From: a virus
Length of the DNA stretch: 18,367 nt
Reading direction: 5' to 3' (one strand)
Virus genome (UHGV): UHGV-1667981
Shown here: positions 1,807-18,367 of the stretch, piece after piece
Position numbering within the stretch: the first letter of the stretch is position 1
How the letters are laid out: the number at the start of each line of letters is the position of its first letter
Notes under the pieces: model-generated
Seen by the model: only the letters and a program-made list of their open reading frames with translations
Database searches by the model: none
What the model was told of the DNA's origin: nothing
Made by a program: the position numbers and the translations under genes

Positions 1807-2928
1807 TTACTCAAATAACTTTTTCACTTCATCAACTGTCTGAAGATAACGTTCGCCCTCAATCTCAATACCTATTGCCTGACGTCCTAACTTCAGCGCA
1901 GCTTTAATAGTTGAGCCTGATCCCATAAAGAAATCGGCAACGATATCTCCGGGGCGTGAACTACTCTTTATAATATGTTCCATCATCGCTGCAGGTTTTT
2001 CACATGGGTGCTTGCCAGGATAATATTGCACAGGAGGAAACTCCCATACATCGGTATAAGGTACATCAGCAGTAACATGAAATGGACGGCGTAAATTTTC
2101 ATACTGAGCCTTCAAATCATCATACTGCTTCTTTACTTCCTCATAATGCAATTTCAGATCGCTATAACGCTTTTCATGTTCTGAATAATCAACATTAAAA
2201 GGATATGGACACGGGACACCGAGTGAATCTGCCTTCCTGCGAAATAATTCGCATAGTTTATTAAAATCAATTAATGATGGAAGCCGCCACTGCGAATAAG
2301 AAAACCAGTGTGAACACATCTGCTTTCCTGTCGCTGAATTAATGTCTGCGGCTGATATATCTAACTGACGGCGAGCCAGCGAAAAAGCATCAATTAGTGG
2401 AGAAAAAATATTTTTTCTTAAATCTGCACATTTTGAAGCATAACCTGACTGACCTTTAGCATAACCTGACGCGCCGTAATGCTCTGCAAATAATATTCTT
2501 TCAGTAGCAGGAAAATAAGCCCTTAAACTTTCTTTATGACAACCGCGCCACATACCACTGGGTTTAGCCCAAATGATATGGTTCAGAACATTGAAACGGT
2601 CGCGAGTTAATAATTCAATTTTTGACGCAAGGCGAGAGCCGGTAAACATATACAGGCTGCCATTAGGGGCCAATATCCGCCAAAATTCTGCCAAAAATTC
2701 GTCAATCCACCCCAAAAAGTCAGCATCGCTATCCCACTGGTTATCCCATGCGTTAGCCTTTACGCCGAAGTATGGTGGGTCTGTTGCAATCAAATTGACC
2801 GAGTTATCAGGGATGGTTTTGATAAATTGCAGAGAATCTGCGCAAACGAGTTGTGCGCCATGAATATTAGTGGTTTTGAACATAGCTATTATTTTTTTGC
2901 CTGGGTAAGCTAACCCGGCGATGCGCAT
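1807..2928 (-). CDS. DNA methyltransferase, N6-adenine/N4-cytosine family (beta-class motif order)
   Basis: ORF 1807..2928(-), 373 aa. DPPY catalytic motif (IATDPPYF) near the N-terminus and AdoMet-binding FxGxG motif (DFFMGSGST) near the C-terminus. Start codon uncertain (alternative internal Met at MFKTTNIH). No adjacent restriction endonuclease gene seen, so it appears orphan. Confidence 0.85.
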   Translation of the reverse strand: MRIAGLAYPGKKIIAMFKTTNIHGAQLVCADSLQFIKTIPDNSVNLIATDPPYFGVKANAWDNQWDSDADFLGWIDEFLAEFWRILAPNGSLYMFTGSRLASKIELLTRDRFNVLNHIIWAKPSGMWRGCHKESLRAYFPATERILFAEHYGASGYAKGQSGYASKCADLRKNIFSPLIDAFSLARRQLDISAADINSATGKQMCSHWFSYSQWRLPSLIDFNKLCELFRRKADSLGVPCPYPFNVDYSEHEKRYSDLKLHYEEVKKQYDDLKAQYENLRRPFHVTADVPYTDVWEFPPVQYYPGKHPCEKPAAMMEHIIKSSSRPGDIVADFFMGSGSTIKAALKLGRQAIGIEIEGERYLQTVDEVKKLFE

Positions 2929-3018
2929 CGCGGGTGGGCTTTAGGTTCAGCCTATAGCTCTGGCATGGGTTGACCGCAGGACAAGCTGCAACTTGTCCTG
3001 CGCCCACTTTTCAGGCAC

Positions 3019-3040
3019 AAAAAAACCGCCATAAAGGCGG
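3019..3040 (-). terminator. Intrinsic terminator (minus strand): 5-bp GC stem CCGCC/GGCGG with 5-nt loop followed by U7
   Basis: Plus strand 3019-3040 is aaaaaaa-ccgcc-ataaa-ggcgg; on the minus strand this is a hairpin followed by 7 T. Lies between the small upstream minus-strand genes and the methylase-lysis block. Confidence 0.5.
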
Positions 3041-3127
3041 CTTGTTGGCTGTTGGGTACAAAAAACCCAACTTAACAAAACAATAACTAAAAACCGTCAT
3101 TTTGCCAAGCTTTTTCGTTTTTGTGCT

Positions 3128-3145
3128 GTGCGACCGTGGTCGCAC
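3128..3145. repeat. 18-bp palindrome GTGCGACC-GT-GGTCGCAC (copy 1 of 3); candidate SopB/ParB-type centromere site
   Basis: Perfect 8-bp inverted arms with 2-bp spacer; arms extend to 11 bp here (3125..3148). Same 18-mer recurs at 7507..7524 and, with 7-bp arms, at 9950..9965. Resembles the F-plasmid sopC core TGGGACC-AC-GGTCCCA as recalled. Confidence 0.5.
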
Positions 3146-3150
3146 AGCTT

Positions 3151-3378
3151 TTAGAAAGTTGCCTGCTTATATTCATCGGTCAAAGAATATCGACCAGATC
3201 CGCTACGCTTTGCAACCCCAAAACAGATCATCTGTTCGATGATAAATTCAACGGCAGCTTGACTCAAAAAACAGGCTTCGCTTAACTCTTTCAGGGAAAT
3301 GTGTGGGTATCCACGCATAACACATTCCACACTCAGGGCCGCTTCAGTCATATTTCCACGAATTTCATTAATATTCAT
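3151..3378 (-). CDS. Hypothetical small protein (75 aa)
   Basis: ORF track 3151..3378(-); no recognisable motif. Positioned upstream of the hairpin-rich control region. Confidence 0.45.
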   Translation of the reverse strand: MNINEIRGNMTEAALSVECVMRGYPHISLKELSEACFLSQAAVEFIIEQMICFGVAKRSGSGRYSLTDEYKQATF

Positions 3379-3391
3379 AACGCCTCTCTAA

Positions 3392-3613
3392 TCAATCTTG
3401 AAACTGGAAATCAACATCAGCCATAAAGCGGTTCAACTCAGCCAGTTTTGGCCCCATAGTCCCAACTAAGCGACCAGCCAGTCGGTCTGTTAGGTTGGTA
3501 CTGTTGAAACCATATTCCTTTTCGAAACGTTCAACCTTCTGCCACAACTCATACAGTTCGTTAGCTATCTCCGCAACGTCGCCGCGCATTTTTTCGTTAC
3601 CTTGATAATTCAT
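3392..3613 (-). CDS. Hypothetical small protein (73 aa from second Met)
   Basis: ORF 3392..3631(-); the in-frame ATG at 3613 is preceded by GGAGGG with a 4-nt spacer, so the shorter start is favoured. No recognisable domain. Confidence 0.5.
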   Translation of the reverse strand: MNYQGNEKMRGDVAEIANELYELWQKVERFEKEYGFNSTNLTDRLAGRLVGTMGPKLAELNRFMADVDFQFQD

Positions 3614-3778
3614 AATACCCTCCAAATTCATATAGTTAGTGGGTTATTGCCCCTCAATGACACGAACTGTAACTCTGCCAAACGAACACATCCAGTGTTA
3701 TTTTTCGCTTTTTAATGAAATTTTTAATTTGCGTTGTTTTCTTGTTTTGGTGTATTTTATGGATGTGGAGGCTATAAT

Positions 3779-4090
3779 ATGTTTAACGTGATAACCCACC
3801 CTGCAGCACTGGATGAACTGCTTGAACTACCAGATGATTTGCGAGGTCGCATGGCCAGATTAATTGAGCGACTGGAGAAAGAAGGCAACAAACTGAAGAT
3901 GCCCCATAGCCGTGTAATAGGTGGAGGGCTTTTTGAACTACGAGTAGGGGATAAAAACATCGCAAGAACGCTGTACGCCTACGCGACTGGTAACGAAATT
4001 TATCTATTGCATGCATTTGTAAAAAAGACACAGAAAACACCGGTGAAGGCTATCGAAATCGCCAGAACTCGCCTGAAGGAGATGAACTGA
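3779..4090 (+). CDS. Type II toxin, RelE/ParE superfamily, HigB-like (Gp49-like)
   Basis: ORF 3734..4090(+); favoured start ATG 3779 with GGAGG SD 8 nt upstream. Motifs GGGLFELRV and LLHAFVKKTQKTP are recalled as typical of HigB/Gp49-like toxins. Toxin-first order, stop overlaps antitoxin start (TGATG). Confidence 0.8.
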   Translation: MFNVITHPAALDELLELPDDLRGRMARLIERLEKEGNKLKMPHSRVIGGGLFELRVGDKNIARTLYAYATGNEIYLLHAFVKKTQKTPVKAIEIARTRLKEMN

Positions 4091-4377
4091 TGAAAGCGAA
4101 AGGCATCCCGTTTAACGAAGTAAAAGAAAAACTCCTCAACACTCCAGAAGCCGTCAAAGGATATGAAGAGGCCGACAAAGAGCTGGAGATGGTCGAAATG
4201 TTATACGAAATGAGGGAAAGAGCAGGTTTAACGAAATCAGCTCTGGCTGAACGAATGGGGTTACGACCGTCAGCCATCAGCCGCCTGGAAAGCAATCCTT
4301 TAGGGGCAAGTATGAAAACTTTGGCTAAATATGCTCATGCCTGCGGCGCAGCCATCGATATTCGCGCTGTTTATTAA
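4090..4377 (+). CDS. HTH (XRE-family) antitoxin, HigA-like
   Basis: ORF 4090..4377(+), 95 aa. Helix-turn-helix segment LTKSALAERMGLRPSAISRLE. AAGGAG SD 8 nt upstream. Translationally coupled to the upstream toxin. Confidence 0.85.
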   Translation: MKAKGIPFNEVKEKLLNTPEAVKGYEEADKELEMVEMLYEMRERAGLTKSALAERMGLRPSAISRLESNPLGASMKTLAKYAHACGAAIDIRAVY

Positions 4378-4393
4378 TTAGACTCTTTTACTA

Positions 4394-4413
4394 CCCCGTC
4401 CAGAAGGGCGGGG
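4394..4413. other. GC-rich hairpin between convergent genes (8-bp stem with one G-U, AGAA loop); possible non-canonical terminator
   Basis: ccccgtcc-agaa-gggcgggg. No U-tract on either side, so not a canonical intrinsic terminator. Confidence 0.3.
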
Positions 4414-4419
4414 TGTGCA

Positions 4420-4623
4420 TCAATGATGTGAACGCTCAACAGCGATAGTTTTCTGACAATGCTGGGCAATCTCTCGCGACATGTTGATGAGTCGTGAAAC
4501 CTCACCAATATGTAGGCTGGCTTCTGGAGAAGCCAGGGTGACGCTAACCAGATCCAGAATGGCGTCAATATCTCTTAAATTTGAATCGAGTTGTTCAAGA
4601 GTTGATACGGCTGCTTCAGACAT
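4420..4623 (-). CDS. Small protein (67 aa) downstream of a LexA box; candidate SOS-inducible antirepressor
   Basis: ORF 4420..4623(-). A CTGT-N8-ACAG LexA box lies 37-56 bp upstream of the start and overlaps a candidate -10. Function is inferred from context only; no sequence family recognised. Confidence 0.5.
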   Translation of the reverse strand: MSEAAVSTLEQLDSNLRDIDAILDLVSVTLASPEASLHIGEVSRLINMSREIAQHCQKTIAVERSHH

Positions 4624-4659
4624 TAAATCTCATACCATTTAACTAAAAAAGGTTGTTTG

Positions 4660-4679
4660 TACTGTATAAAATTACAGGG
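4660..4679. promoter_or_regulatory. LexA (SOS) box tACTGTATAAAATTACAGgg
   Basis: Both CTGT and ACAG half-sites intact with an AT-rich 8-bp spacer; 15/20 matches to the TACTGTATATATATACAGTA consensus by eye. Overlaps a candidate promoter (TTGAGT-17-TACAGT on the minus strand) for the 4420..4623 gene. Confidence 0.6.
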
Positions 4680-4705
4680 TAAAACTCAAACTTTACGGTC
4701 AATTT

Positions 4706-4948
4706 TCAATGAATTAACTGCGTAAACTGCTGTGTGGCCCGATACTTATGCTCTCTCCCTATGCCACGATCAACTTTCTCAAGAAGTCCAGTACGGACAG
4801 CAGAATCAAGCATCCTTTTAACAATTCTGCTATTTAACCCAACATCAAAAGCAAGCATCGAAGCGAAAACAAACCCATCACCACCATCAGAAAAGCTCTT
4901 TTCGCTCCGTTTTCGTATCATTTCAAAAAGCAATGCCTTTTTATCCAT
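4706..4948 (-). CDS. Hypothetical small protein (80 aa), possibly DNA-binding
   Basis: ORF 4706..4948(-). GGAGGG SD 4 nt upstream of ATG, immediately preceded by the CGTGACCAGTCACG palindrome. DNA-binding role is a guess. Confidence 0.5.
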   Translation of the reverse strand: MDKKALLFEMIRKRSEKSFSDGGDGFVFASMLAFDVGLNSRIVKRMLDSAVRTGLLEKVDRGIGREHKYRATQQFTQLIH

Positions 4949-4956
4949 TTATCCCT

Positions 4957-4971
4957 CCGTGACCAGTCACG
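4957..4971. promoter_or_regulatory. Palindrome CCGTGAC-CA-GTCACG (copy 1 of 2); candidate regulator binding site
   Basis: 14-bp core CGTGACCAGTCACG; its reverse complement CGTGACTGGTCACG recurs at 14594..14607 inside a longer 20-bp palindrome. Sits directly upstream of the SD of the 4706..4948 gene. Confidence 0.35.
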
Positions 4972-5293
4972 CTTTGAGCGCAAGTTTCAGCCTCGTGGTT
5001 GTAAGGTGGCATGACCCTTCGCCATCAAAAATGCATTCTGAAACAGGCATTTTTTGACCACATCGTGGGCAAGTAGTAGATAGCTGCTTCTGCAGCTCCT
5101 TATAGTTTTTCCTGATCAACAAACCAATGACTTCGTTCTCCGAATATGGAACTCGCCCTGGTCTACGCAATACACAAATTTCCCCCAACATACGTAACTC
5201 GTCAGGTTCTAGAATCCAGTCCCGTCTTGATGTGCCTTCCTTCTTCAACCGTTCCCTGCGTCTCCTTTGCCGTTCTGCCGGTGTCAGCGCCAT
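4967..5293 (-). CDS. Hypothetical protein (108 aa) with Arg-rich N-terminus and CPRCG...C..H putative zinc-binding cluster
   Basis: ORF track 4967..5293(-); QRRRRERLKK then CPRCGQ...SECIFDGEGSCH. No confident family assignment. Confidence 0.5.
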   Translation of the reverse strand: MALTPAERQRRRRERLKKEGTSRRDWILEPDELRMLGEICVLRRPGRVPYSENEVIGLLIRKNYKELQKQLSTTCPRCGQKMPVSECIFDGEGSCHLTTTRLKLALKA

Positions 5294-5308
5294 AAATCCT
5301 CCTGAAAA

Positions 5309-5968
5309 TTACTTAACCCAATTAACTACACCGCCAGCGGCCACAACCGCCCTTTCACAGTCACGCTCATATCTCAAAGGTTGAAATACACCATCAATAA
5401 AATATTTATCTCCACCAAACGTTGCAGGAAGTGAAACAGAAAACTGAACATGACCATCCGGAGTTACCGGAGAGTTGCCAGCCTCATACGCGACCCTTAT
5501 CCAGTGCATAAACATTTCAGTACTTACACATCCACAATCAACATCAATTTTGTCATGCTGCTGTTCCAGCCATTGCTCAAAAGTTAACTTGTAAGTTTGG
5601 CTTACAGGTTTGGCTTCCAGTTCTGCTACGCGCTGTTTTGCAGCATCCAGTTCAATCGACAATTTTTCCAACTGCTCTTTATGCTTCTTGTATTCCTGAT
5701 ATGCGTGCCAGGACTGACCTTTGCGCACACTATCAGTAATATCAGTAATCTGTTCTGGTGTTAGCGTAGTCAGTGGCTGTGCTGGGAAAATCAGCACTTT
5801 CCCGGAATCCCAATCAAAACCAGCGTGAATTGACTGAACCTCAACTGAGGGTGTTGAACCAATGCTGCCAGGCGAATGAATAACGATTGTTACATCCATA
5901 TCGCGACGATGGCTGTGGTTGTTGGACAAAATACGATTCACCAACTCAGAAAATTTGGAAAATTTCAT
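5309..5968 (-). CDS. Hypothetical protein (219 aa) with central coiled-coil segment
   Basis: ORF track 5309..5968(-); KEQLEKLSIELDAAKQRVAELEA heptad-like segment. Overlaps the upstream gene's stop (5965..5968), suggesting translational coupling. Confidence 0.55.
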   Translation of the reverse strand: MKFSKFSELVNRILSNNHSHRRDMDVTIVIHSPGSIGSTPSVEVQSIHAGFDWDSGKVLIFPAQPLTTLTPEQITDITDSVRKGQSWHAYQEYKKHKEQLEKLSIELDAAKQRVAELEAKPVSQTYKLTFEQWLEQQHDKIDVDCGCVSTEMFMHWIRVAYEAGNSPVTPDGHVQFSVSLPATFGGDKYFIDGVFQPLRYERDCERAVVAAGGVVNWVK

Positions 5969-6255
5969 GCTGATTCCCCTTTCTCTGCTCTCTCCTGTCG
6001 GAACATCACTATCATCAGGTCGCCTTTTGTCGCTATCTTGGCTGTTGTGCCTGGCTCAATGCGGCTAAGTTCAAATGCGTCATAGAACGCCTCTAACACT
6101 TTCTGGCGTCTTTCCTGTTTGCGGTGCTTTCCCCACTGCTTTAGAAAAACAGAGGCCGCCCACTTCCCCGCACTGAACATGATGTAAAACCAACCGAGAA
6201 GTGCCAGACCGATATTTAGGGCCGTATCGATCGTTATCGTGGTGTCGATATTCAC
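5965..6255 (-). CDS. Hypothetical small membrane protein (96 aa, one N-terminal TM helix)
   Basis: ORF track 5965..6255(-); hydrophobic LNIGLALLGWFYIMF followed by a charged tail. Start overlaps the upstream gene's stop. Confidence 0.45.
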   Translation of the reverse strand: MNIDTTITIDTALNIGLALLGWFYIMFSAGKWAASVFLKQWGKHRKQERRQKVLEAFYDAFELSRIEPGTTAKIATKGDLMIVMFRQERAEKGESA

Positions 6256-6674
6256 TACGCCACCTCCTGTAAATTTCCCTGATAAAAAGCCAGCACACGC
6301 TGCATAACTTCACTTTTCCGGCAATCGTGACAAATCATGTTCAAGCGCCTGTCGTAACGACGTATTTCTCCGTCAGGTAATGACCAGATAAGGTCTGGAT
6401 CAACCACTACCGATTTCTTCGGCTTTACTCTTGATAGTTTTTTACGGGCGTTTTGCCAGTCCTTGCGTGCTTGTGCAGACAGAAATATCCCGGAGCCAGA
6501 GATATACAAATCACCACTGGCAGCAAGCTCTCTTGATAAACGACTAACAGCACACCGGCTAATACCAGTTTCATCCGCAAGTTGCCTAACCGTTCCTCGT
6601 CCATTCAGGCGCACGAATTCCACAATTTGTTTATTCAGTTCTTCCCTCTGTTCTGGTGTAAAAGCCTTTGCCAT
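6255..6674 (-). CDS. Hypothetical DNA-binding protein (139 aa) with N-terminal HTH and CHDC motif
   Basis: ORF track 6255..6674(-); HTH-like segment TVRQLADETGISRCAVSRLSRELA. Start overlaps the exonuclease gene stop at 6674. Confidence 0.55.
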   Translation of the reverse strand: MAKAFTPEQREELNKQIVEFVRLNGRGTVRQLADETGISRCAVSRLSRELAASGDLYISGSGIFLSAQARKDWQNARKKLSRVKPKKSVVVDPDLIWSLPDGEIRRYDRRLNMICHDCRKSEVMQRVLAFYQGNLQEVA

Positions 6675-7273
6675 TACGATTCTCCTTGCCCTTTTACAAG
6701 ACGGGAGAAAATTGCGGATACATATTTAGCCTGATGAATAGCATCAGCCAGGGCATTGTGTCGTTCGCCATCAAATGGCATATCTTTTTTAGGATTAAAA
6801 CCAATAAACTGACCAAGATTAACGATTGTTCGAACATCCTGATCATTAAAATATTCCCATGGACAGGCTAAGCCAACGCGCTCATAAGCACCGCGTAAAA
6901 TTACATTATCGAACGTTGCTCCATTTCCCCATACTTTCAACTTTTTTAAATTACATGCATGGCAAGTAATAAAGTGTGATAATTCAAAAAGTGCATCATT
7001 AATATCAAGGGCATCATTAGTACAAATAGCGGCTCTGGCTTCCTTGCTCTGTTTCAACCACCATAAAATGGTATCACCATCGGCGATACCACCATTCAAC
7101 ATCGAGCTTCTGAGATTCACTGGCACATAAAAAGTAGGACCTAATTCCTCACTTTCTGGAGAAAAAAACACTGCCCCGATAGAAACAATTGGAGCACATG
7201 TGTTAGTACCCATTGTTTCAAGGTCAATCATTACATCAGACCGTTTCCTGTCGTAAATAATCTGATTAGTCAC
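6674..7273 (-). CDS. DEDDh-type 3'-5' exonuclease (DnaQ-like fold)
   Basis: ORF 6674..7273(-), 199 aa; GTG start with GAGGAG SD 8 nt upstream. Exo I-like motif MIDLETMG (D-x-E) and C-terminal H-x4-D (ERHNALADAIH). Confidence 0.7.
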   Translation of the reverse strand: MTNQIIYDRKRSDVMIDLETMGTNTCAPIVSIGAVFFSPESEELGPTFYVPVNLRSSMLNGGIADGDTILWWLKQSKEARAAICTNDALDINDALFELSHFITCHACNLKKLKVWGNGATFDNVILRGAYERVGLACPWEYFNDQDVRTIVNLGQFIGFNPKKDMPFDGERHNALADAIHQAKYVSAIFSRLVKGQGES

Positions 7274-9587: not shown

Positions 9588-12500
9588 ATGACATTAAACG
9601 ATTTCTATGCGGATCGCTTTGGCAGCGATCCGTTCTCGCTAATTGAAGCAGCACGGGATGAACTAACCGAGCTGGCACAGATGGCTGGTATCAACTGGCC
9701 TGCCTGTTCCGACAACATCCAACTCAACCCTCGCGGGGGTGTTGAGCGTTACTCTTCATACAATAAAACATCTCCAGAAGCTCTCGAGAAGAGCCTCAAA
9801 GGACGCGTAGAAATTTACTCCCGGCTGGAACACAGCAAAGGGATTGATTATCCGTTCATTAACTTCGTCCATAAAGGCAGCGATGCTGGCTCATGGAGCG
9901 GTTTCTCCTTCCTGTTTTCTGAATATCGCCGTGAGCAACAGCGGAATAATGCGACCGTGGTCGCACAACCGGAAGAAGAACGGGCAAGAATAGAACGTCA
10001 GGCCGAAGCACGTCGTCGCCGTGAAGAACAAAAACGAATTAATGACCTGAAAAACAACCAAATGGACCATGAACGTTTGCTGGGATGGCTGGCATTTCAC
10101 AGCGCGTGGGAACATGCTCCTGCAGAAGACGGCTCGTGGCCATATGCGATTAAAAAAGGTATTCGTGACGTTTTTAATTCGTGTGATGTGCGTCGCGTGA
10201 CCAGTCACGACAGCGCAAAATGGAGCAGGGGGCCAACCACGTATATGGCTATCCCTCTGGCTCACCTGGACGGTCGTTACGATGGTCGTATTGTGGGTTG
10301 GCAGCGAATCGACAAACAAGGTGGAAAATACCAGACCAGCGCCGTAACCAGCGGCGATTTCGTCGGTGCCTGCTTTGTTATCGGTGAGCTAAAAGGGGCG
10401 CAAAACATCGCTGTTACAGAAGGTTTTGCTACTGGTGCATCCATCTGGCTTGCCACGAAAAAAGATAAACGCTTTGACGCTGTGGTTGTCGCTGTATCCG
10501 CTAACAACATGGTTCATGTTGTGGAACAACTGGTAAACATGTACCCGGCGGCAAAAATCACCTGCGCACTGGATAATGACAGGAAATCAGCTACAGAAGG
10601 AAAAGGGAATACCGGCCTGCGGACTGGCTATGAAATCTTATCGAAATTCAACGATGTCCGCTGCGTCTATCCAACTTTTGAAGACGATCCGCAAATGGAG
10701 TGCAGTGACTTCAACGACCTGCACAAACTACGTGGACTTCGTGAAACAGCACGTCAACTGTTTGCAACTGCAAACCGCCTGAAAACTGGCACTGATTTGC
10801 TATCTCTGACGCTCAACCGCCTGAAGACAATTAAGCGGGATAACCGTCGTACTTTTGCCAAAGAGCTGCTGAGAGCGGTGGATATTGGCATGCTAACCTG
10901 CCCGGTTCCTAACAGTCCGTCAGATTTATTTAACATGTTCTGCATCGTTCTGCGTGAAATGGGACTGGAAAATATCTATCGCGCTACGGTAAAAGACCAC
11001 ATTGCCCGTCGCCTGAATAAAAAGTGCCGTATTGCCCAGGCTCCGCGCTCTTTCAGCGAACGCATAACTGATCCCAATAAACGCCCTCAACATATCACCT
11101 ATAAGCGTTTTGAAACTTCGGTAATGACCGATGATGTCCTGAAGTACGTGCAATCACTACAGGGGATAGTCATCGTCCGTGCTGGTATGGGTTCCGGCAA
11201 ATCTACTGGATTGTTACGACCGTTAATGCATAGCTCAGAACGTGGTATCTCTGTTGCTCACCGTGTCTCCCTTATTGGTGGCCTGTGGGAAATGATGACA
11301 GAAGGAAAAGGTGTAAAAGCCGATATCCTGCACTATCAGGACCCTGGCTATCAGGAAATGGCTCCATACGCCAGTAAACTGACCATCTGCATAAACTCGA
11401 TTGTTAAAAACTGCTGGCAACCGTTGATGCGCCAGCACGACTATTTTGGCTTTGACGAGGCCACGCAAGGGCTACGTGCCGTTCTTTCCGGTCGGGCTAT
11501 GGAAAACCCGGTTGCTGTATTCAATACGCTAATTGACGCGCTGGCCAGAACGGAACAACACCCAATCATGGTGGATGCTGATGCGAACGATCTACTGGTT
11601 GACCTGGCTGAACTGGCTATGAAACGCCGTGAAGAACTAGGTTTACCGGCATGGCTGCAGATCCACGTAATTGAATTACCTGTTGATGTTTGCAACCGCG
11701 AAACAGGTGAGCCAATCCGGGTTTTTTATACAGAAAAAGATCGCATCATGACCGAGGTGGTGAAAGCTGTATCGGATGGCGAAAAAATCATGTTGGCCAC
11801 CGACAGCTCCACCTTTGCAGAAGATGTGACAGCCACCCTGAGAATGCATTTTCCTGGTAAGAAATTTCTGTGTGTAAACCAGAAAAACAAACCAGAGCCA
11901 GAAGTTGAAGCATTTACCAATCAACCGAAAAAGATGGTCAAAAAATACGACGGCCTGATTTATAGCCCGTCTATTTCATCCGGCGTGTCGATTGAGCAAA
12001 AACATTTTGACCGTCATTTCGGCATGTTCTGTGGTGAAGTTGTACCCAGCGACGCAGTGCAAATGCTACGCCGCGACCGTACAGCAAAAGAATTTATTAT
12101 CGGCTTTGATAAAGCTCGTGCAAAACGTGAAACTGACCCGCAAAAAATAGAACGAGCATTCGCCCAGGCATTGCTTGCTACCGCAGGTATGAACGGTGAA
12201 CTTACGGATGTCGTTTTCGATGGCGACCGTATATCAATGGGGGTGGCCAATACCGACTTTACCAGGATGAAAATTAAAGCAGCCGCAATTGAAGCGACTG
12301 CGCGTAACGACTACGCCAGCAACATGATCTGCATCATGCACAGCGACGGTTATAAGGTATCACCGCTGGCCACCGATTATGCTGCGAATGATATCGGTAA
12401 AGATCTGCGTAAAGAAGCGCGGGATATTGTGTGGGAACAGACACTGGATCTGCACCTCAATACAGAAACTCCACAAGAATCAGAGCGTGAAGAACTGCTA

Positions 12501-13583
12501 AAAAAACGCGCGCTGACGCTTGAAGAACAGGCAAAACTTGTCCGCTGGGATATTGAAAACGAACTGAAACTACCGGTTGAAGAAGGCACGCTGAAATTCT
12601 ATTTCGATGGTGCTCGAGACAAAGTTCGCCGCTATGAAACAATGCTTTTAGATGAGGTAACAGCTCGTCGTTACGACCGGGAAGAAGCAGCCATCAATTT
12701 TACCTACGCATACCGTCAGGCGGGACAGTGGCAATATTTTGTAGTGACCGCGATGACTCGCGAGCAGGCTGATGATGTCTTTAAAACTAAATTCCCTGGA
12801 ATAATCGATCACAAGGTAAAAGCTACTCCTACTGTTGAAGTCGGGGCGCGCGGTTTCTATGCGCTTAAATCAGCAACTCTCCGGCAGTACTTTATCGACT
12901 GCGGTATCAACCCTGAAACTATGACCGGCGAGGCGACTCAGGAGCGTCTCAAATTCGCTCGAGATAACCTCATGACAGCCGAACGCCGTGACCTGTTGAA
13001 TAACGTTCTGCACATTGGTGGTTTTATGACGCCAAAAGGGAAGCCTAAAGTGCCGGAAGCGTTGTTTAAAAACATTTGCGACTCTCTTGGCCTTAAAACA
13101 GGTAAACGTCGCGGCAGAGACGGCGATAAGCGTCCAACCTTGCGTTTTGTTGAGCCCGAATCAGCGGCATTTATGCTGGATATTCTTGTTCAGCGTCAGA
13201 AAGATGGCCTAACCCTAAAAACGCGTAAAGCCGAGAAGACAGCCATCGAAATGGATCGCGATTTGGATCTCAATATATATATGGATGATAAAACGCGATC
13301 CACAAACGAGCAGGTTCAAAACGCCCCTCATTCAGTAATTTCTGAGGCTTTGGCCGTATTGCCGGTGGCTGTTCCTGAGTCCTGGGCGATGAGTGCGCTT
13401 TCCGGTGAGGAGCTGGCCACTATGTCATCATGGTCATCAACCAGCATAGCTATGACGTTTGCATCTCTGTACCTCACAGAGTTCATGGATCACTTGTCCA
13501 GCAATGAACTGCGGCGGTTACGAGAATACATTACCGGGAATAGCTCATGCAGCTACGAAGAGCAGGGCGCTTTCTATGGGTAA
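9588..13583 (+). CDS. repA: Multifunctional replication protein, primase-helicase (N15 RepA-type, 1331 aa)
   Basis: ORF 9588..13583(+). TOPRIM-like primase signature (AVTEGFATGASIW ... CALDNDRKS) in the N-terminal third; Walker A RAGMGSGKSTG and Walker B-like FGFDEATQG in the middle. Size and architecture match N15 RepA (about 1300 aa) as recalled. Confidence 0.9.
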   Translation: MTLNDFYADRFGSDPFSLIEAARDELTELAQMAGINWPACSDNIQLNPRGGVERYSSYNKTSPEALEKSLKGRVEIYSRLEHSKGIDYPFINFVHKGSDAGSWSGFSFLFSEYRREQQRNNATVVAQPEEERARIERQAEARRRREEQKRINDLKNNQMDHERLLGWLAFHSAWEHAPAEDGSWPYAIKKGIRDVFNSCDVRRVTSHDSAKWSRGPTTYMAIPLAHLDGRYDGRIVGWQRIDKQGGKYQTSAVTSGDFVGACFVIGELKGAQNIAVTEGFATGASIWLATKKDKRFDAVVVAVSANNMVHVVEQLVNMYPAAKITCALDNDRKSATEGKGNTGLRTGYEILSKFNDVRCVYPTFEDDPQMECSDFNDLHKLRGLRETARQLFATANRLKTGTDLLSLTLNRLKTIKRDNRRTFAKELLRAVDIGMLTCPVPNSPSDLFNMFCIVLREMGLENIYRATVKDHIARRLNKKCRIAQAPRSFSERITDPNKRPQHITYKRFETSVMTDDVLKYVQSLQGIVIVRAGMGSGKSTGLLRPLMHSSERGISVAHRVSLIGGLWEMMTEGKGVKADILHYQDPGYQEMAPYASKLTICINSIVKNCWQPLMRQHDYFGFDEATQGLRAVLSGRAMENPVAVFNTLIDALARTEQHPIMVDADANDLLVDLAELAMKRREELGLPAWLQIHVIELPVDVCNRETGEPIRVFYTEKDRIMTEVVKAVSDGEKIMLATDSSTFAEDVTATLRMHFPGKKFLCVNQKNKPEPEVEAFTNQPKKMVKKYDGLIYSPSISSGVSIEQKHFDRHFGMFCGEVVPSDAVQMLRRDRTAKEFIIGFDKARAKRETDPQKIERAFAQALLATAGMNGELTDVVFDGDRISMGVANTDFTRMKIKAAAIEATARNDYASNMICIMHSDGYKVSPLATDYAANDIGKDLRKEARDIVWEQTLDLHLNTETPQESEREELLKKRALTLEEQAKLVRWDIENELKLPVEEGTLKFYFDGARDKVRRYETMLLDEVTARRYDREEAAINFTYAYRQAGQWQYFVVTAMTREQADDVFKTKFPGIIDHKVKATPTVEVGARGFYALKSATLRQYFIDCGINPETMTGEATQERLKFARDNLMTAERRDLLNNVLHIGGFMTPKGKPKVPEALFKNICDSLGLKTGKRRGRDGDKRPTLRFVEPESAAFMLDILVQRQKDGLTLKTRKAEKTAIEMDRDLDLNIYMDDKTRSTNEQVQNAPHSVISEALAVLPVAVPESWAMSALSGEELATMSSWSSTSIAMTFASLYLTEFMDHLSSNELRRLREYITGNSSCSYEEQGAFYG
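9950..9965. repeat. Palindrome TGCGACC-GT-GGTCGCA (copy 3 of 3), inside repA coding sequence
   Basis: Shares the 16-bp core gcgaccgtggtcgcac (9951..9966) with the 18-mer at 3128..3145; 7-bp inverted arms here, because the flanking base is A rather than G. Encodes ATVVAQ in the repA frame, the same peptide the copy at 7507..7524 encodes in the 7481..7801 ORF. Confidence 0.5.
13252..13302. other. Candidate internal replication origin element within the 3' part of repA: 9-bp inverted repeat flanking an (AT)n tract with three GATC sites
   Basis: tggatcgcg (13252..13260) and cgcgatcca (13294..13302) flank atttggatctcaatatatatatggatgataaaa. GATC at 13254, 13266 and 13297. Confidence 0.35.
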
Positions 13584-14637: not shown

Positions 14638-14746
14638 TGTGCGTCGTTTTGACGGTAAAGTTACTTCGCTGCGGTAAATCCCGTAGCCGGGACTCTCAAC
14701 CCCGAAATCCGAACGACGCACAACACGCGCCAGCGTGTTTTTTTGT
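14638..14746 (+). ncRNA. Candidate structured small RNA or leader (c4/CA-RNA-like) ending in an intrinsic terminator
   Basis: Long-range stem gtgcgtcgtt (14640..14649) pairs with aacgacgcac (14712..14721), enclosing about 60 nt. Followed by terminator hairpin aacacgc-gcca-gcgtgtt plus T-run (14722..14746). No credible coding ORF here. Identity as a regulatory RNA is inferred from position and structure only. Confidence 0.35.
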
Positions 14747-14844
14747 GTGTATGAGCCTGCGCATATCCGAATTATGGTGGCTCAGGTGGGGCAGCCGAAA
14801 GGCTGGCCGGTGTCGTTTGGGCCGGTGTTGAGAACCCCGCTTGG

Positions 14845-14890
14845 GCTACCACCCCATAGAGATTCTCAACTCTGGTGGTAGCACTGTTTT
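14845..14890 (+). terminator. Attenuator-like hairpin (9-bp stem GCTACCACC/GGTGGTAGC, 20-nt loop) followed by TTTT, just upstream of the antirepressor operon SD
   Basis: Loop contains TTCTCAAC, which is complementary to GTTGAGAA at 14827..14834 and is also repeated (CTCTCAAC) at 14693..14700. T-run starts 4 nt after the stem. Confidence 0.35.
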
Positions 14891-16257: not shown

Positions 16258-18177
16258 TTAGCCGAAATATGTCAGCCATGCTAACTGCATTGCTGACATG
16301 GGGCTGTTTGCACTGCCTGACCACGCATAATTCTGGCCATTATAATGAAACTCGACAACGTATGAGCCATCACCAATATTTCTCACTGGCTTAAATACCG
16401 GCTTAGATACAGGCGAAGAAGGTGCGGGTGGCTGCTGTTCTTCTACGCTTTCTTCCTCTTCCTCTTCCTCTTCCTCTTCCTCTTCCTCTTCCTCTATCTC
16501 AATTTCGTCGTCATCCAGATCGTCATCATCTGATAATTCATCCGCCTGTTCAGGTATTGCTTCCAGCTCTTCTTCGTCAGGCATAACGATTTCTGGAGTA
16601 TCTATTTTCAGCTGCCATTGTCCATTTTCGCCAACAAATTGCCCCAGAGCATCAGCAGCAAATTCCAGGTATCGACTAATCATTGTTGGGCTAAATTTGA
16701 ATGCTCTTAGCGTGCTGTTCGTGATTTTTATAGAGGGGTCCTGCTCTACCAGCTGCTTAACTGTGTTATGCAGACGAACCCCGGCATCTCCTCTGGCGAA
16801 TCCAGGCATTTCGTCATCAAGCTGCTGCAATGCTTCCAGCCTGGTATTTTCGTTTCCAGTATTTGGCCTCCATGTCTTTGAGAAGTTGGCCAGCTTGAAT
16901 TGCTTATAGTGTAATTGAGTGTTTTCATCGTCATGGCCTAAAATTTCCATAAAGAAAACATCCTCATCTACGTTTTTCCAACGAGGATCTACGCGGAAAA
17001 ACATTTCATACGCAATACGGGCATAAATAGCACGACTATCTTTATAAACACGGCGGTCATCTTTGAAAAATGATTTAACCCACGGGTTAAAAGCCTTTGC
17101 TAATATGGCATTAATACGTCCGTTTTCAGAGCGTGTGTCGTTATCTCCATAACCTTTAACGACATCATCAAAATCAGATGCTGCTGGGCATGATCGAAGT
17201 ACATTTATTAAATAAACAAATGTTTTTGCTTCGCATAATGTATATATTTTTCTGGTTATATCATCAGAAGTTCTTTTTTTAGCTTGGCCTAAAAAATCAA
17301 CGGTATACTTACCAGAAACAGTAAATGTACCTTGATACATAATCTCAATCATTCGTCTTCCTGACAATGCAGCAAGTGCAAATGCCAAAGGAGCCATACC
17401 TGAACGAGTGTTTAGATTATTTAATGTAGCAGGGCTATTTATAATATCGTAAATAGCTTGCATATATTTAGGGTAATCAATGACCACCACGTTACGTTTC
17501 TTATTGTGCAGAACGTCTGCCCATCGTTGCTGGATAGATGCGCGTTCGGCAGGGCTTAGTTGAAGATGATAGAGAATCTCATGGTTAACTTTTAGCTGAT
17601 TCAACTCCTCAAGCAAGGCAGATCCTTGCTGTAGTAATTTATATAAATAATCGCGCTTATCTTTCCAGTTATCGCTAGTTAAATCAGAAATGGCGAATTG
17701 CCACTCTTTATATTTATTTGATAATTTTAATAACTTATTATGACTTTTGTTATCACCAATTCTGATATTAGATAAATCTTCTGATAAAGGGAGAATTAAT
17801 TTTAATTTTGCCTGTAAAGCTGACATTCTCTGGCGAATATCGGCAGCAGGTAGAGAAAGCCATGATAATAGCTCCTCATTATATAAAGGATACTTTTCAG
17901 ATAGGCGATGTATATTTTTTTCAAAGCTATGATGAAGTTTATCATCAAACCGTTTTCTGGCCCTGCTCATATAGGTATTGAATGTGTTGGCTGTAATTCT
18001 TTTTTCTAATCCTTTCCCCCTAAACTTTCGCTTGTCATTAAATAATGCATTTTTAAATTTTAATGCAACAGCCTTTATTTTTTTTGTTTTTTCTCCTTGA
18101 GGACGGTCAGAGTTATCTATTGACTCAACATCGCTAACAAGTGAGTTTATTAATTCACCGATTTTTACTTTTCTCAT
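16258..18177 (-). CDS. telN: Protelomerase (telomere resolvase, TelN/TelK family)
   Basis: ORF 16258..18177(-), 639 aa; strong SD GGAGAGGAAAG upstream. Recognised from memory as closely resembling N15 TelN / phiKO2 TelK along its length (e.g. MRKVKIGELIN..., RSGMAPLAFALAALSGRRMIEI, ILGHDDENTQLHYKQF). Adjacent to a telomere-palindrome half-site at the window end. No alignment was run. Confidence 0.9.
   Translation of the reverse strand: MRKVKIGELINSLVSDVESIDNSDRPQGEKTKKIKAVALKFKNALFNDKRKFRGKGLEKRITANTFNTYMSRARKRFDDKLHHSFEKNIHRLSEKYPLYNEELLSWLSLPAADIRQRMSALQAKLKLILPLSEDLSNIRIGDNKSHNKLLKLSNKYKEWQFAISDLTSDNWKDKRDYLYKLLQQGSALLEELNQLKVNHEILYHLQLSPAERASIQQRWADVLHNKKRNVVVIDYPKYMQAIYDIINSPATLNNLNTRSGMAPLAFALAALSGRRMIEIMYQGTFTVSGKYTVDFLGQAKKRTSDDITRKIYTLCEAKTFVYLINVLRSCPAASDFDDVVKGYGDNDTRSENGRINAILAKAFNPWVKSFFKDDRRVYKDSRAIYARIAYEMFFRVDPRWKNVDEDVFFMEILGHDDENTQLHYKQFKLANFSKTWRPNTGNENTRLEALQQLDDEMPGFARGDAGVRLHNTVKQLVEQDPSIKITNSTLRAFKFSPTMISRYLEFAADALGQFVGENGQWQLKIDTPEIVMPDEEELEAIPEQADELSDDDDLDDDEIEIEEEEEEEEEEEEEEESVEEQQPPAPSSPVSKPVFKPVRNIGDGSYVVEFHYNGQNYAWSGSANSPMSAMQLAWLTYFG
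16448..16495. repeat. Hexanucleotide microsatellite (TTCCTC)x7 encoding a poly-Glu run in the protelomerase C-terminal region
   Basis: Seven perfect tandem TTCCTC units at 16454..16495 with partial flanking units; on the coding strand this is GAG/GAA giving EEEEEEEEEEEEEEEE. Confidence 0.9.
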
Positions 18178-18211
18178 CTTTCCTCTCCTGATTATTCGCT
18201 CGGATTATCGT

Positions 18212-18307
18212 AACACAATTTGAGAATAAGATAACTAATAACGCGTTAACTTAGCTACAAACTAACAGAACACAATAACGGATAGTAAACAAAAACACAA
18301 TATCGGA
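18212..18307. repeat. tos-like repeats upstream of the protelomerase gene: AACACAAT-containing direct repeats
   Basis: AACACAATAACGGA (18269..18282) and AACACAATATCGGA (18294..18307) are 14-bp direct repeats with one mismatch; AACACAAT also at 18212..18219; related GCACATAAT in the terminal half-site. Inverted CGGAAC/GTTCCG at 18304..18309 and 18333..18338. Confidence 0.5.
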
Positions 18308-18340
18308 ACGCTAAAAATTGTTCCTTGACTTTGTTCCGAA

Positions 18341-18367
18341 AATCAGCACATAATTCCCCATTATACG
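18341..18367. other. Telomere-resolution site half (telO-like): AATCAGCACATAATTCCCCATTATACG, ending at the palindrome centre
   Basis: The final 10 bases CCATTATACG are the left half of the N15 telO core CCATTATACGCGCGTATAATGG as recalled; the preceding ATCAGCACATAAT resembles the flanking N15 telRL arm. The window stops exactly where the palindrome would turn. Confidence 0.65.

Follow-up and report, generated by a model that had tools for sequence, protein, structure and literature searches.

The protelomerase (telomere resolvase) gene of the virus genome UHGV-1667981 carries a run of glutamate codons built from a perfectly repeated hexanucleotide, and the question it raises is whether this tract changes in length among relatives and, if so, whether its length matters to the enzyme. 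The stretch of DNA analyzed (the window) is 18,367 nucleotides (nt) long, and the gene, identified from the list of open reading frames (ORFs), its Pfam domains and an alignment to the TelK structure 2V6E, occupies positions 16258..18177 on the minus strand as 639 codons and a stop. We find that the tract is a real, fairly ordinary coding microsatellite, or variable-number tandem repeat (VNTR), lying in a linker predicted to be disordered, and thus an instance of a standard phenomenon. Its length variation is in frame, probably driven by slippage, and probably tolerated as near-neutral since the length of the linker is only loosely constrained.

The repeat and its alleles

Tandem Repeats Finder, run on the window, returns an array on the minus strand at 16451..16495 with a period of 6, 7.5 copies, 100% matches and a score of 90, by far the strongest repeat present. 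A scan for period-6 runs found the same 45 nt as a single perfect run and no further run in the window; the longest perfect period-6 run in shuffled versions of the window (n = 200) was 16 nt, so that head-to-tail perfect short units occur here beyond chance, as expected of a coding microsatellite. A preliminary description, made from the letters of this DNA, had placed a perfect (TTCCTC)7 repeat within a protelomerase gene, and this is borne out: seven full TTCCTC units lie at 16453-16494, with the local letters between 16440 and 16500 reading ...CGCTTTC(TTCCTC)7TATCTC..., inside an ORF with four protelomerase Pfam domains. The start then assigned, 16448, is 3 nt too early, since 16447-16449 is the Ser577 codon and T16450 interrupts the period. 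The run of 16 Glu likewise has to be shortened; on the coding strand the tract reads (GAG GAA)x7 and then GAA, and by the codon table it encodes, together with the GAA at 16450-16452, 15 successive Glu residues (Glu562-Glu576). An adjacent element on the same strand, GAA ATT GAG ATA at 16495..16506, encodes (Glu-Ile)x2. A literature search found no paper describing the (GAGGAA)n repeat of the protelomerase gene.

To compare copy number across related genes, as the preliminary description had proposed, relatives were searched with residues 1-526, because a full-length protein query was swamped by EEEEEEEE (600 stretches, with 2 real loci on viral contigs and 0 on genome contigs). The sample of 38 records consists of the window, 2 phage records, 24 plasmid records from Escherichia coli, Shigella (Shigella sonnei), E. 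albertii and E. fergusonii, and 11 IMG/VR contigs of the same clade, at nucleotide identities of 95.6-98.9%; the tract was compared as the segment between two conserved anchors. The number of codons in the acidic run differs widely, with 3 codons in 2 records, 5 in 3, 7 in 5, 9 in 4, 11 in 10, 13 in 6, 15 in 5 (including the window, which thus carries a long allele), 17 in 1 and 25 in 1, while in one more record (GAGGTA)3 replaces the Glu run. These lengths are always odd, that is, they differ in 6-nt steps, and the anticipated in-frame variation between isolates, in the whole units that slippage predicts, is thereby seen. The shortest alleles, with 1.5 units, stand in intact genes (L012, L063). 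The neighboring GAGATA (Glu-Ile) unit varies as well, between 2 and 3 copies, giving EIEI and EIEIEI alleles (L011, L013, L015, L059, L060, L071), and point-mutated units have been amplified too, with GATGAA x3 in LR883007 (L055) and GAGGTA x3 in CP165740 (L061).

The variation is confined to the repeat. In a MAFFT alignment of the 33 intact copies, which fall into 25 haplotypes with 112 variable sites in 1845 nt, the sole gapped columns are codons 561-573. Genes with 0 SNPs (single-nucleotide polymorphisms) elsewhere nevertheless have unequal tracts: 11 codons in L010 vs 7 in L064, and 15 in L011/L059 vs 11 in L013/L060. The closest relative of the window in the tree sample, CP088738, differs by 9 SNPs and has 11 Glu, with the terminal GAA codon in common. 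Fitch parsimony on a neighbor-joining tree of the masked gene requires at least 19 length changes, and by an arithmetic estimate the tract locus changes at ∼300 times the rate of the average nucleotide site. The locus therefore shows whole-unit copy-number polymorphism, indels restricted to the repeat, and recurrent changes faster than point substitution, all of which define a VNTR, and judged from these sequence comparisons it is hypermutable. Variation is also evident on a larger scale. At the 90%-identity level the protein cluster comprises 682 distinct sequences, and the members listed are 629, 631, 633, 635 and 639 aa long, differing by multiples of 2 aa; among them the commonest allele is that of 631 aa (7 Glu), found on 103 contigs. 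The exact protein of the window was not found in this 682-sequence collection.

Sequencing or assembly errors in a low-complexity repeat might be suspected as the source of the length differences, since noisy long-read assemblies do exist and the copies in CP019258, LR883007, CP088430 and CP088562 are frameshifted. Against this, intact copies differ by exact multiples of 6 nt and have indels nowhere else, isolates and sources that are independent of one another share alleles (the 631-aa allele and its many contigs being one example), and the arms of assemblies that read through the hairpin telomere agree where the assembly is clean. The tracts also measure only 9-75 nt, which is shorter than typical short reads. 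We regard an artifact as extremely improbable.

An on/off switch of the protelomerase, or of its C-terminal domain, by frameshifting is an idea to which a mutable repeat within a gene gives its only encouragement, and it has virtually no chance of being correct. A phase-variable locus is recognized by a unit not divisible by 3, whereas the unit here is 6 nt, so the locus is unable to act as such a switch, and phase variation was rejected on this ground. All 33 of the 33 clean copies are in frame. Of the broken copies, those in CP019258, LR883007 and CP088430 belong to assemblies whose annotation marks them as frameshifted or fragmented, and those in CP025712 and LT906558 are the second arms of assemblies that read through a hairpin; L054, L055 and the two copies of L065 still have an intact, identical tract at the DNA level. 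With a 6-nt unit whose two codons specify Glu alike, each change is instead in frame and conservative.

A role for the nucleic acid itself, as H-DNA, as a protein-binding site or as seven GAGGA motifs in tandem, similar to Shine-Dalgarno sites, at which ribosomes would pause ahead of translating the small C-terminal domain, would fit a coding strand that is 100% purine in the tract, with repeated GAGG/AGGA motifs. We nonetheless hold it to be very unlikely. On direct inspection GAGGAA is not a mirror repeat, which disfavors an intramolecular triplex, and H-DNA was rejected for this reason. The alleles of 1.5 units sit in intact genes, and other lineages have no repeat at this position, both of which argue that the gene needs no fixed element of DNA or RNA. 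Rfam gave no family match at the tract (its sole matches in the window lie at 14668-14856), no promoter or terminator pattern specific to the tract was found, and the plus-strand ORFs that overlap the protelomerase gene are short and unsupported.

The acidic linker and the C-terminal domain

What the tract encodes is best understood from the layout of the protein. Pfam assigns, all far above cutoffs, TelK_N to residues 4-78, the muzzle to 81-198, the catalytic (ResT/TelK) domain to 257-427 and the stirrup to 443-533, and no domain after residue 533, where the linker and the final domain follow. The stirrup, a DNA-binding domain (16579..16851, minus strand; PF20818, E = 4e-48), is the last structured domain ahead of the linker. 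Residues 1-536 align to the TelK structure 2V6E with E = 5e-296, and the tract and linker lie outside this TelK538 core, which has been crystallized and suffices for catalysis.

Residues 534-590 (16408..16578, minus strand) form a 57-aa acidic linker beyond the end of TelK538, in keeping with the acidic C-terminal location first proposed for the repeat: 34 of its 57 residues are Asp or Glu and 0 are Lys or Arg. In a full-length AlphaFold2 model built with 47 homologues, residues 535-590 have a predicted local distance difference test score (pLDDT) below 50, with block means of 26-44, and are without secondary structure. The model and the composition together predict that the linker is disordered, and its charged low-complexity composition, absence of predicted structure and variable length in homologues are those of a disordered acidic linker. 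In 128 family members (55-98% identity), 61-86 aa separate the stirrup from the C-terminal domain; this spacer is ∼40% acidic and free of repeats, and Glu runs of at least 5 occur only in the E. coli clade. By the same measure the spacer of that clade is ∼67-89 aa, a spread about as wide as that of the whole family.

The linker alignment reveals a motif inside this segment, Asp557-Glu558-Ile559 (D-E-I; 16501..16509, minus strand), which precedes the poly-Glu run by two residues. In the 47 protelomerases, which reach down to 56% identity, D557 and E558 never vary and I559 shows conservation of at least 90%, in the context L-D-D-D-E-I-E; D-E-I may be a short linear interaction motif. Indels of independent origin occur in this linker in other lineages too; in one of them L003/L034 (IMGVR_UViG_2916255364_000002) carry a 7-residue duplication, DEDEIDL DEDEIDL, that includes the motif and is seen by comparison with L035. 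This independent duplication points to the linker as an indel hot spot of the whole family, beyond the E. coli clade.

The linker is followed by a small conserved C-terminal domain, CTD2 (residues 591-639; 16261..16407, minus strand), defined by the AlphaFold2 model and by conservation and equivalent to residues 583-631 of N15 TelN. It is modeled as a β-hairpin and a helix, with a pLDDT of 85-92 in the full-length model and 90.8 when modeled alone, and P593, F595, G604, W619, G621, A623, A629, M630, A633 and W634 are invariant in the 47 protelomerases. Foldseek searches of the PDB and BFVD gave no fold neighbor at E ≤ 0.001; a weak resemblance to double-stranded-RNA-binding-domain-like and RNase H-like β-β-α folds falls below significance and is a lead only. 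A CTD2 profile, run against 1.84 billion representatives, hit protelomerase C-termini or fragments for the most part, together with a few stand-alone proteins made of an acidic segment and CTD2. Profile matches of several stretches in large repeat proteins were set aside as spurious β-hairpin similarity. The domain appears modular: Salmonella protelomerases of 682-715 aa have a divergent second copy, short proteins consist of an acidic stretch and CTD2, and one protein fuses CTD2 to a head-tail-adaptor-like N-terminus (the CTD2-related proteins are P0091-P0093, P0098 and P0103, and P0159, P0165 and P0177).

Published work on two relatives bears on how far this region is needed. The window protein is 78% identical to a 631-aa protelomerase on an IMG/VR contig, which we take to be N15 TelN. 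Alignment maps TelN residues 541-631 to residues 540-639 of the window protein and 583-631 to 591-639, so the larger deletion takes out the whole equivalent of the tract. Both TelN deletions, 541-631 and 583-631, retain full telomere resolution in vitro and inhibit Mre11-Rad50 (SbcCD) like the wild type, and the function of the TelN C-terminal domains is called unknown by the authors of that study (PMC12624138). The TelK crystal construct, which ends at residue 538, was also described as active (PMC3575837).

Taken together, these data suggest to us a simple account. Slipped-strand mispairing, as the phage-plasmid replicates in E. coli, would most likely be what adds whole 6-nt units to the (GAGGAA)n array and removes them. 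The poly-Glu run would be part of a disordered acidic linker that tethers CTD2 to the DNA-bound protelomerase core, a linker that probably needs acidity and an approximate rather than an exact length, so that length changes could accumulate as near-neutral polymorphism. Slippage is the most likely mechanism in view of the whole-unit steps, their recurrence, the amplified variant units and the lack of indels anywhere else in the gene. For comparison, E. coli 6-bp VNTRs change by whole units at 4e-5 to 2e-3 mutations per generation (PMC3777172). Near-neutrality we infer from the family-wide length range and the published TelN truncations: a clade range close to the family-wide range favors near-neutral variation, and with a linker predicted to be disordered and only loosely constrained in length, in a region dispensable for the known activities in vitro, tolerated polymorphism is the most economical reading.

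Several points weigh against this account. Unequal recombination between units could yield the same pattern of alleles. Selection acts on part of the linker, as the invariance of D-E-I in the alignment shows. In vivo, induction was needed before truncated TelN would protect linear DNA (PMC12624138), and the C-terminal region may therefore matter at native expression. The allele counts, finally, are approximate, as some IMG/VR and NCBI records may share one isolate. With the invariant motif, the conserved CTD2 and the need for induction in vivo, the length or charge of the linker may still affect function.

The strongest competing proposal, that tract length is an adaptive tuning knob, builds on this possibility; the preliminary description had already suggested that the length could tune the domain, which the evidence gathered here does not support. 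Length would set the reach or charge of the tether to CTD2 or D-E-I, or the strength of an acidic, DNA-mimicking autoinhibition, and would thereby adjust turnover, nonspecific DNA binding or contact with a host or phage partner, with selection favoring a mutable tract. Recurrent change over the broad range of 3-25 codons would be expected of such a knob, as would the family-wide conservation of acidic character and D-E-I, the high conservation of CTD2 and the overexpression that C-terminally truncated TelN needs for protection in vivo; acidic tails also compete with DNA in HMGB1, T7 gp2.5 and SSB. However, any 6-nt repeat gives recurrence and in-frame change without selection, TelN without linker and CTD2 shows full activity in vitro, in resolution as well as in Mre11-Rad50 inhibition, and the allele range resembles what is tolerated across the family. 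We therefore consider tuning unlikely. A more specific form, in which a selected "length and charge dial" acts on the tether from the telomere-bound core to the D-E-I/CTD2 module, is quite unlikely; if it were true, alleles would set the competition of the linker with DNA or the reach of CTD2 to a partner, and the release of the enzyme from hairpin telomeres, or the choice between lysogeny and lytic replication, would be adjusted in different hosts. Near-neutral slippage remains the reading that we favor.

The telomere site and the carrier replicon

The gene has 97-98% nucleotide identity to those of Escherichia phages YDC107_1 (Ravinvirus) and PhiR46_1, and its assignment as a protelomerase rests on the TelK-type domain set, conserved active-site residues and an adjoining palindromic telomere site on a linear replicon. 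R275, K300, H415 and Y424 are invariant in the 47 homologues, and Y424 pairs with TelK Y425 in the 2V6E alignment; we take these to be the catalytic residues, with Y424 presumably the tyrosine nucleophile, as in TelK.

Upstream of the gene, 18178..18367 comprises the promoter/leader region and the left half of the telomere palindrome, recognized by comparison with two references: CP031108, where a perfect palindrome of 382 nt separates the inverted gene copies, and PhiR46_1, which has an annotated telL. Between the telomere site and the protelomerase start codon downstream of it lie 190 nt. At its right edge the window stops 1 nt short of the dyad center of the palindrome (...CCCCATTATACG/C GCGTATAATGGGG; TATACGCGCGTATA-centred; ...CCCCATTATACGC/GCGTATAATGGGG), which identifies this edge as telL, the hairpin telomere of a linear plasmid-prophage. 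The carrier of the gene is an N15-like linear plasmid-prophage of E. coli.

The two inverted protelomerase copies around the palindrome in CP031108 (L053) lie at 2601-6822, and the same inverted layout occurs in CP019258, CP126957, CP014491, CP088738, CP088810, CP088379, LT906558 and CP025712. Most of these records were deposited as circular, CP025712 and LT906558 as linear, and all exceed the true 46-kb linear genome; they look like long-read assembly through a hairpin end or a head-to-head replicative dimer. The inverted copies were considered as a test of heterogeneity within a sample and rejected for that use, since the arms are read-through of one hairpin and not independent. Differences from arm to arm occur only in noisy assemblies.

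Two further features of the window were recorded. The Rfam matches above gathering score are an isrK Hfq-binding RNA (14668-14743) and a C4 antisense RNA (14770-14856), both on the plus strand; we take this region to be the P1/N15-type antirepressor-control RNA of the prophage. An ORF of 1331 aa at 9588-13583 on the plus strand matches the RepA-type replication protein to which records of relatives give the name "plasmid replication protein, CyRepA1 family" or "primase". In N15 the origin lies within repA; if this holds here, protelomerase transcription would run head-on to the fork that travels to the telomere.

Relation to known systems

The practical value of these observations is modest, and our understanding of telomere resolution is unchanged by them. 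The tract could serve as a high-resolution typing marker for the widespread N15-like phage-plasmids of E. coli, Shigella and related Escherichia, and the natural allelic series, from 3 to 25 Glu, could be used to probe the role of the linker and CTD2. TelN and TelK serve in the production of closed-ended linear DNA, and for engineering it is useful to know that this segment tolerates large changes in length.

The closest parallels to the repeat itself are the 6-bp VNTR loci used in multilocus VNTR analysis (MLVA) of E. coli, such as O157-10, TR3, TR4 and TR7, which likewise consist of perfect 6-nt units and undergo recurrent stepwise change by whole units. Several E. coli VNTR/MLVA loci are also in coding regions. 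Unlike them, the present tract is not chromosomal but belongs to an N15-like linear phage-plasmid, and its Glu run lies in the linker of a telomere resolvase. Among resolvases, the window protein has the same order of N-terminal, muzzle, catalytic and stirrup domains, acidic linker and small C-terminal domain as N15 TelN and phiKO2 TelK, and the D-E-I motif and CTD2 are conserved between them. The TelN and TelK linkers are acidic and nonrepetitive, with no Glu run of 5 or more; the (GAGGAA)n array and its length polymorphism belong only to the E. coli YDC107_1/PhiR46_1-like clade.

As a long Asp/Glu-rich segment on a DNA-binding core, predicted to be disordered, the linker resembles the acidic disordered tails of HMGB1, T7 gp2.5 and the SSB C-termini. 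By analogy with these tails, an autoinhibitory or partner-binding role of the linker is possible, as a lead only; unlike them, the acidic segment of the window protein is internal and is followed by a folded domain. With the contingency loci of Neisseria and Haemophilus the tract shares a mutable simple-sequence repeat in a coding region. Their units of 1, 2, 4, 5 or 7 nt shift the reading frame, whereas the 6-nt unit of the protelomerase gene alters the length of the protein only.

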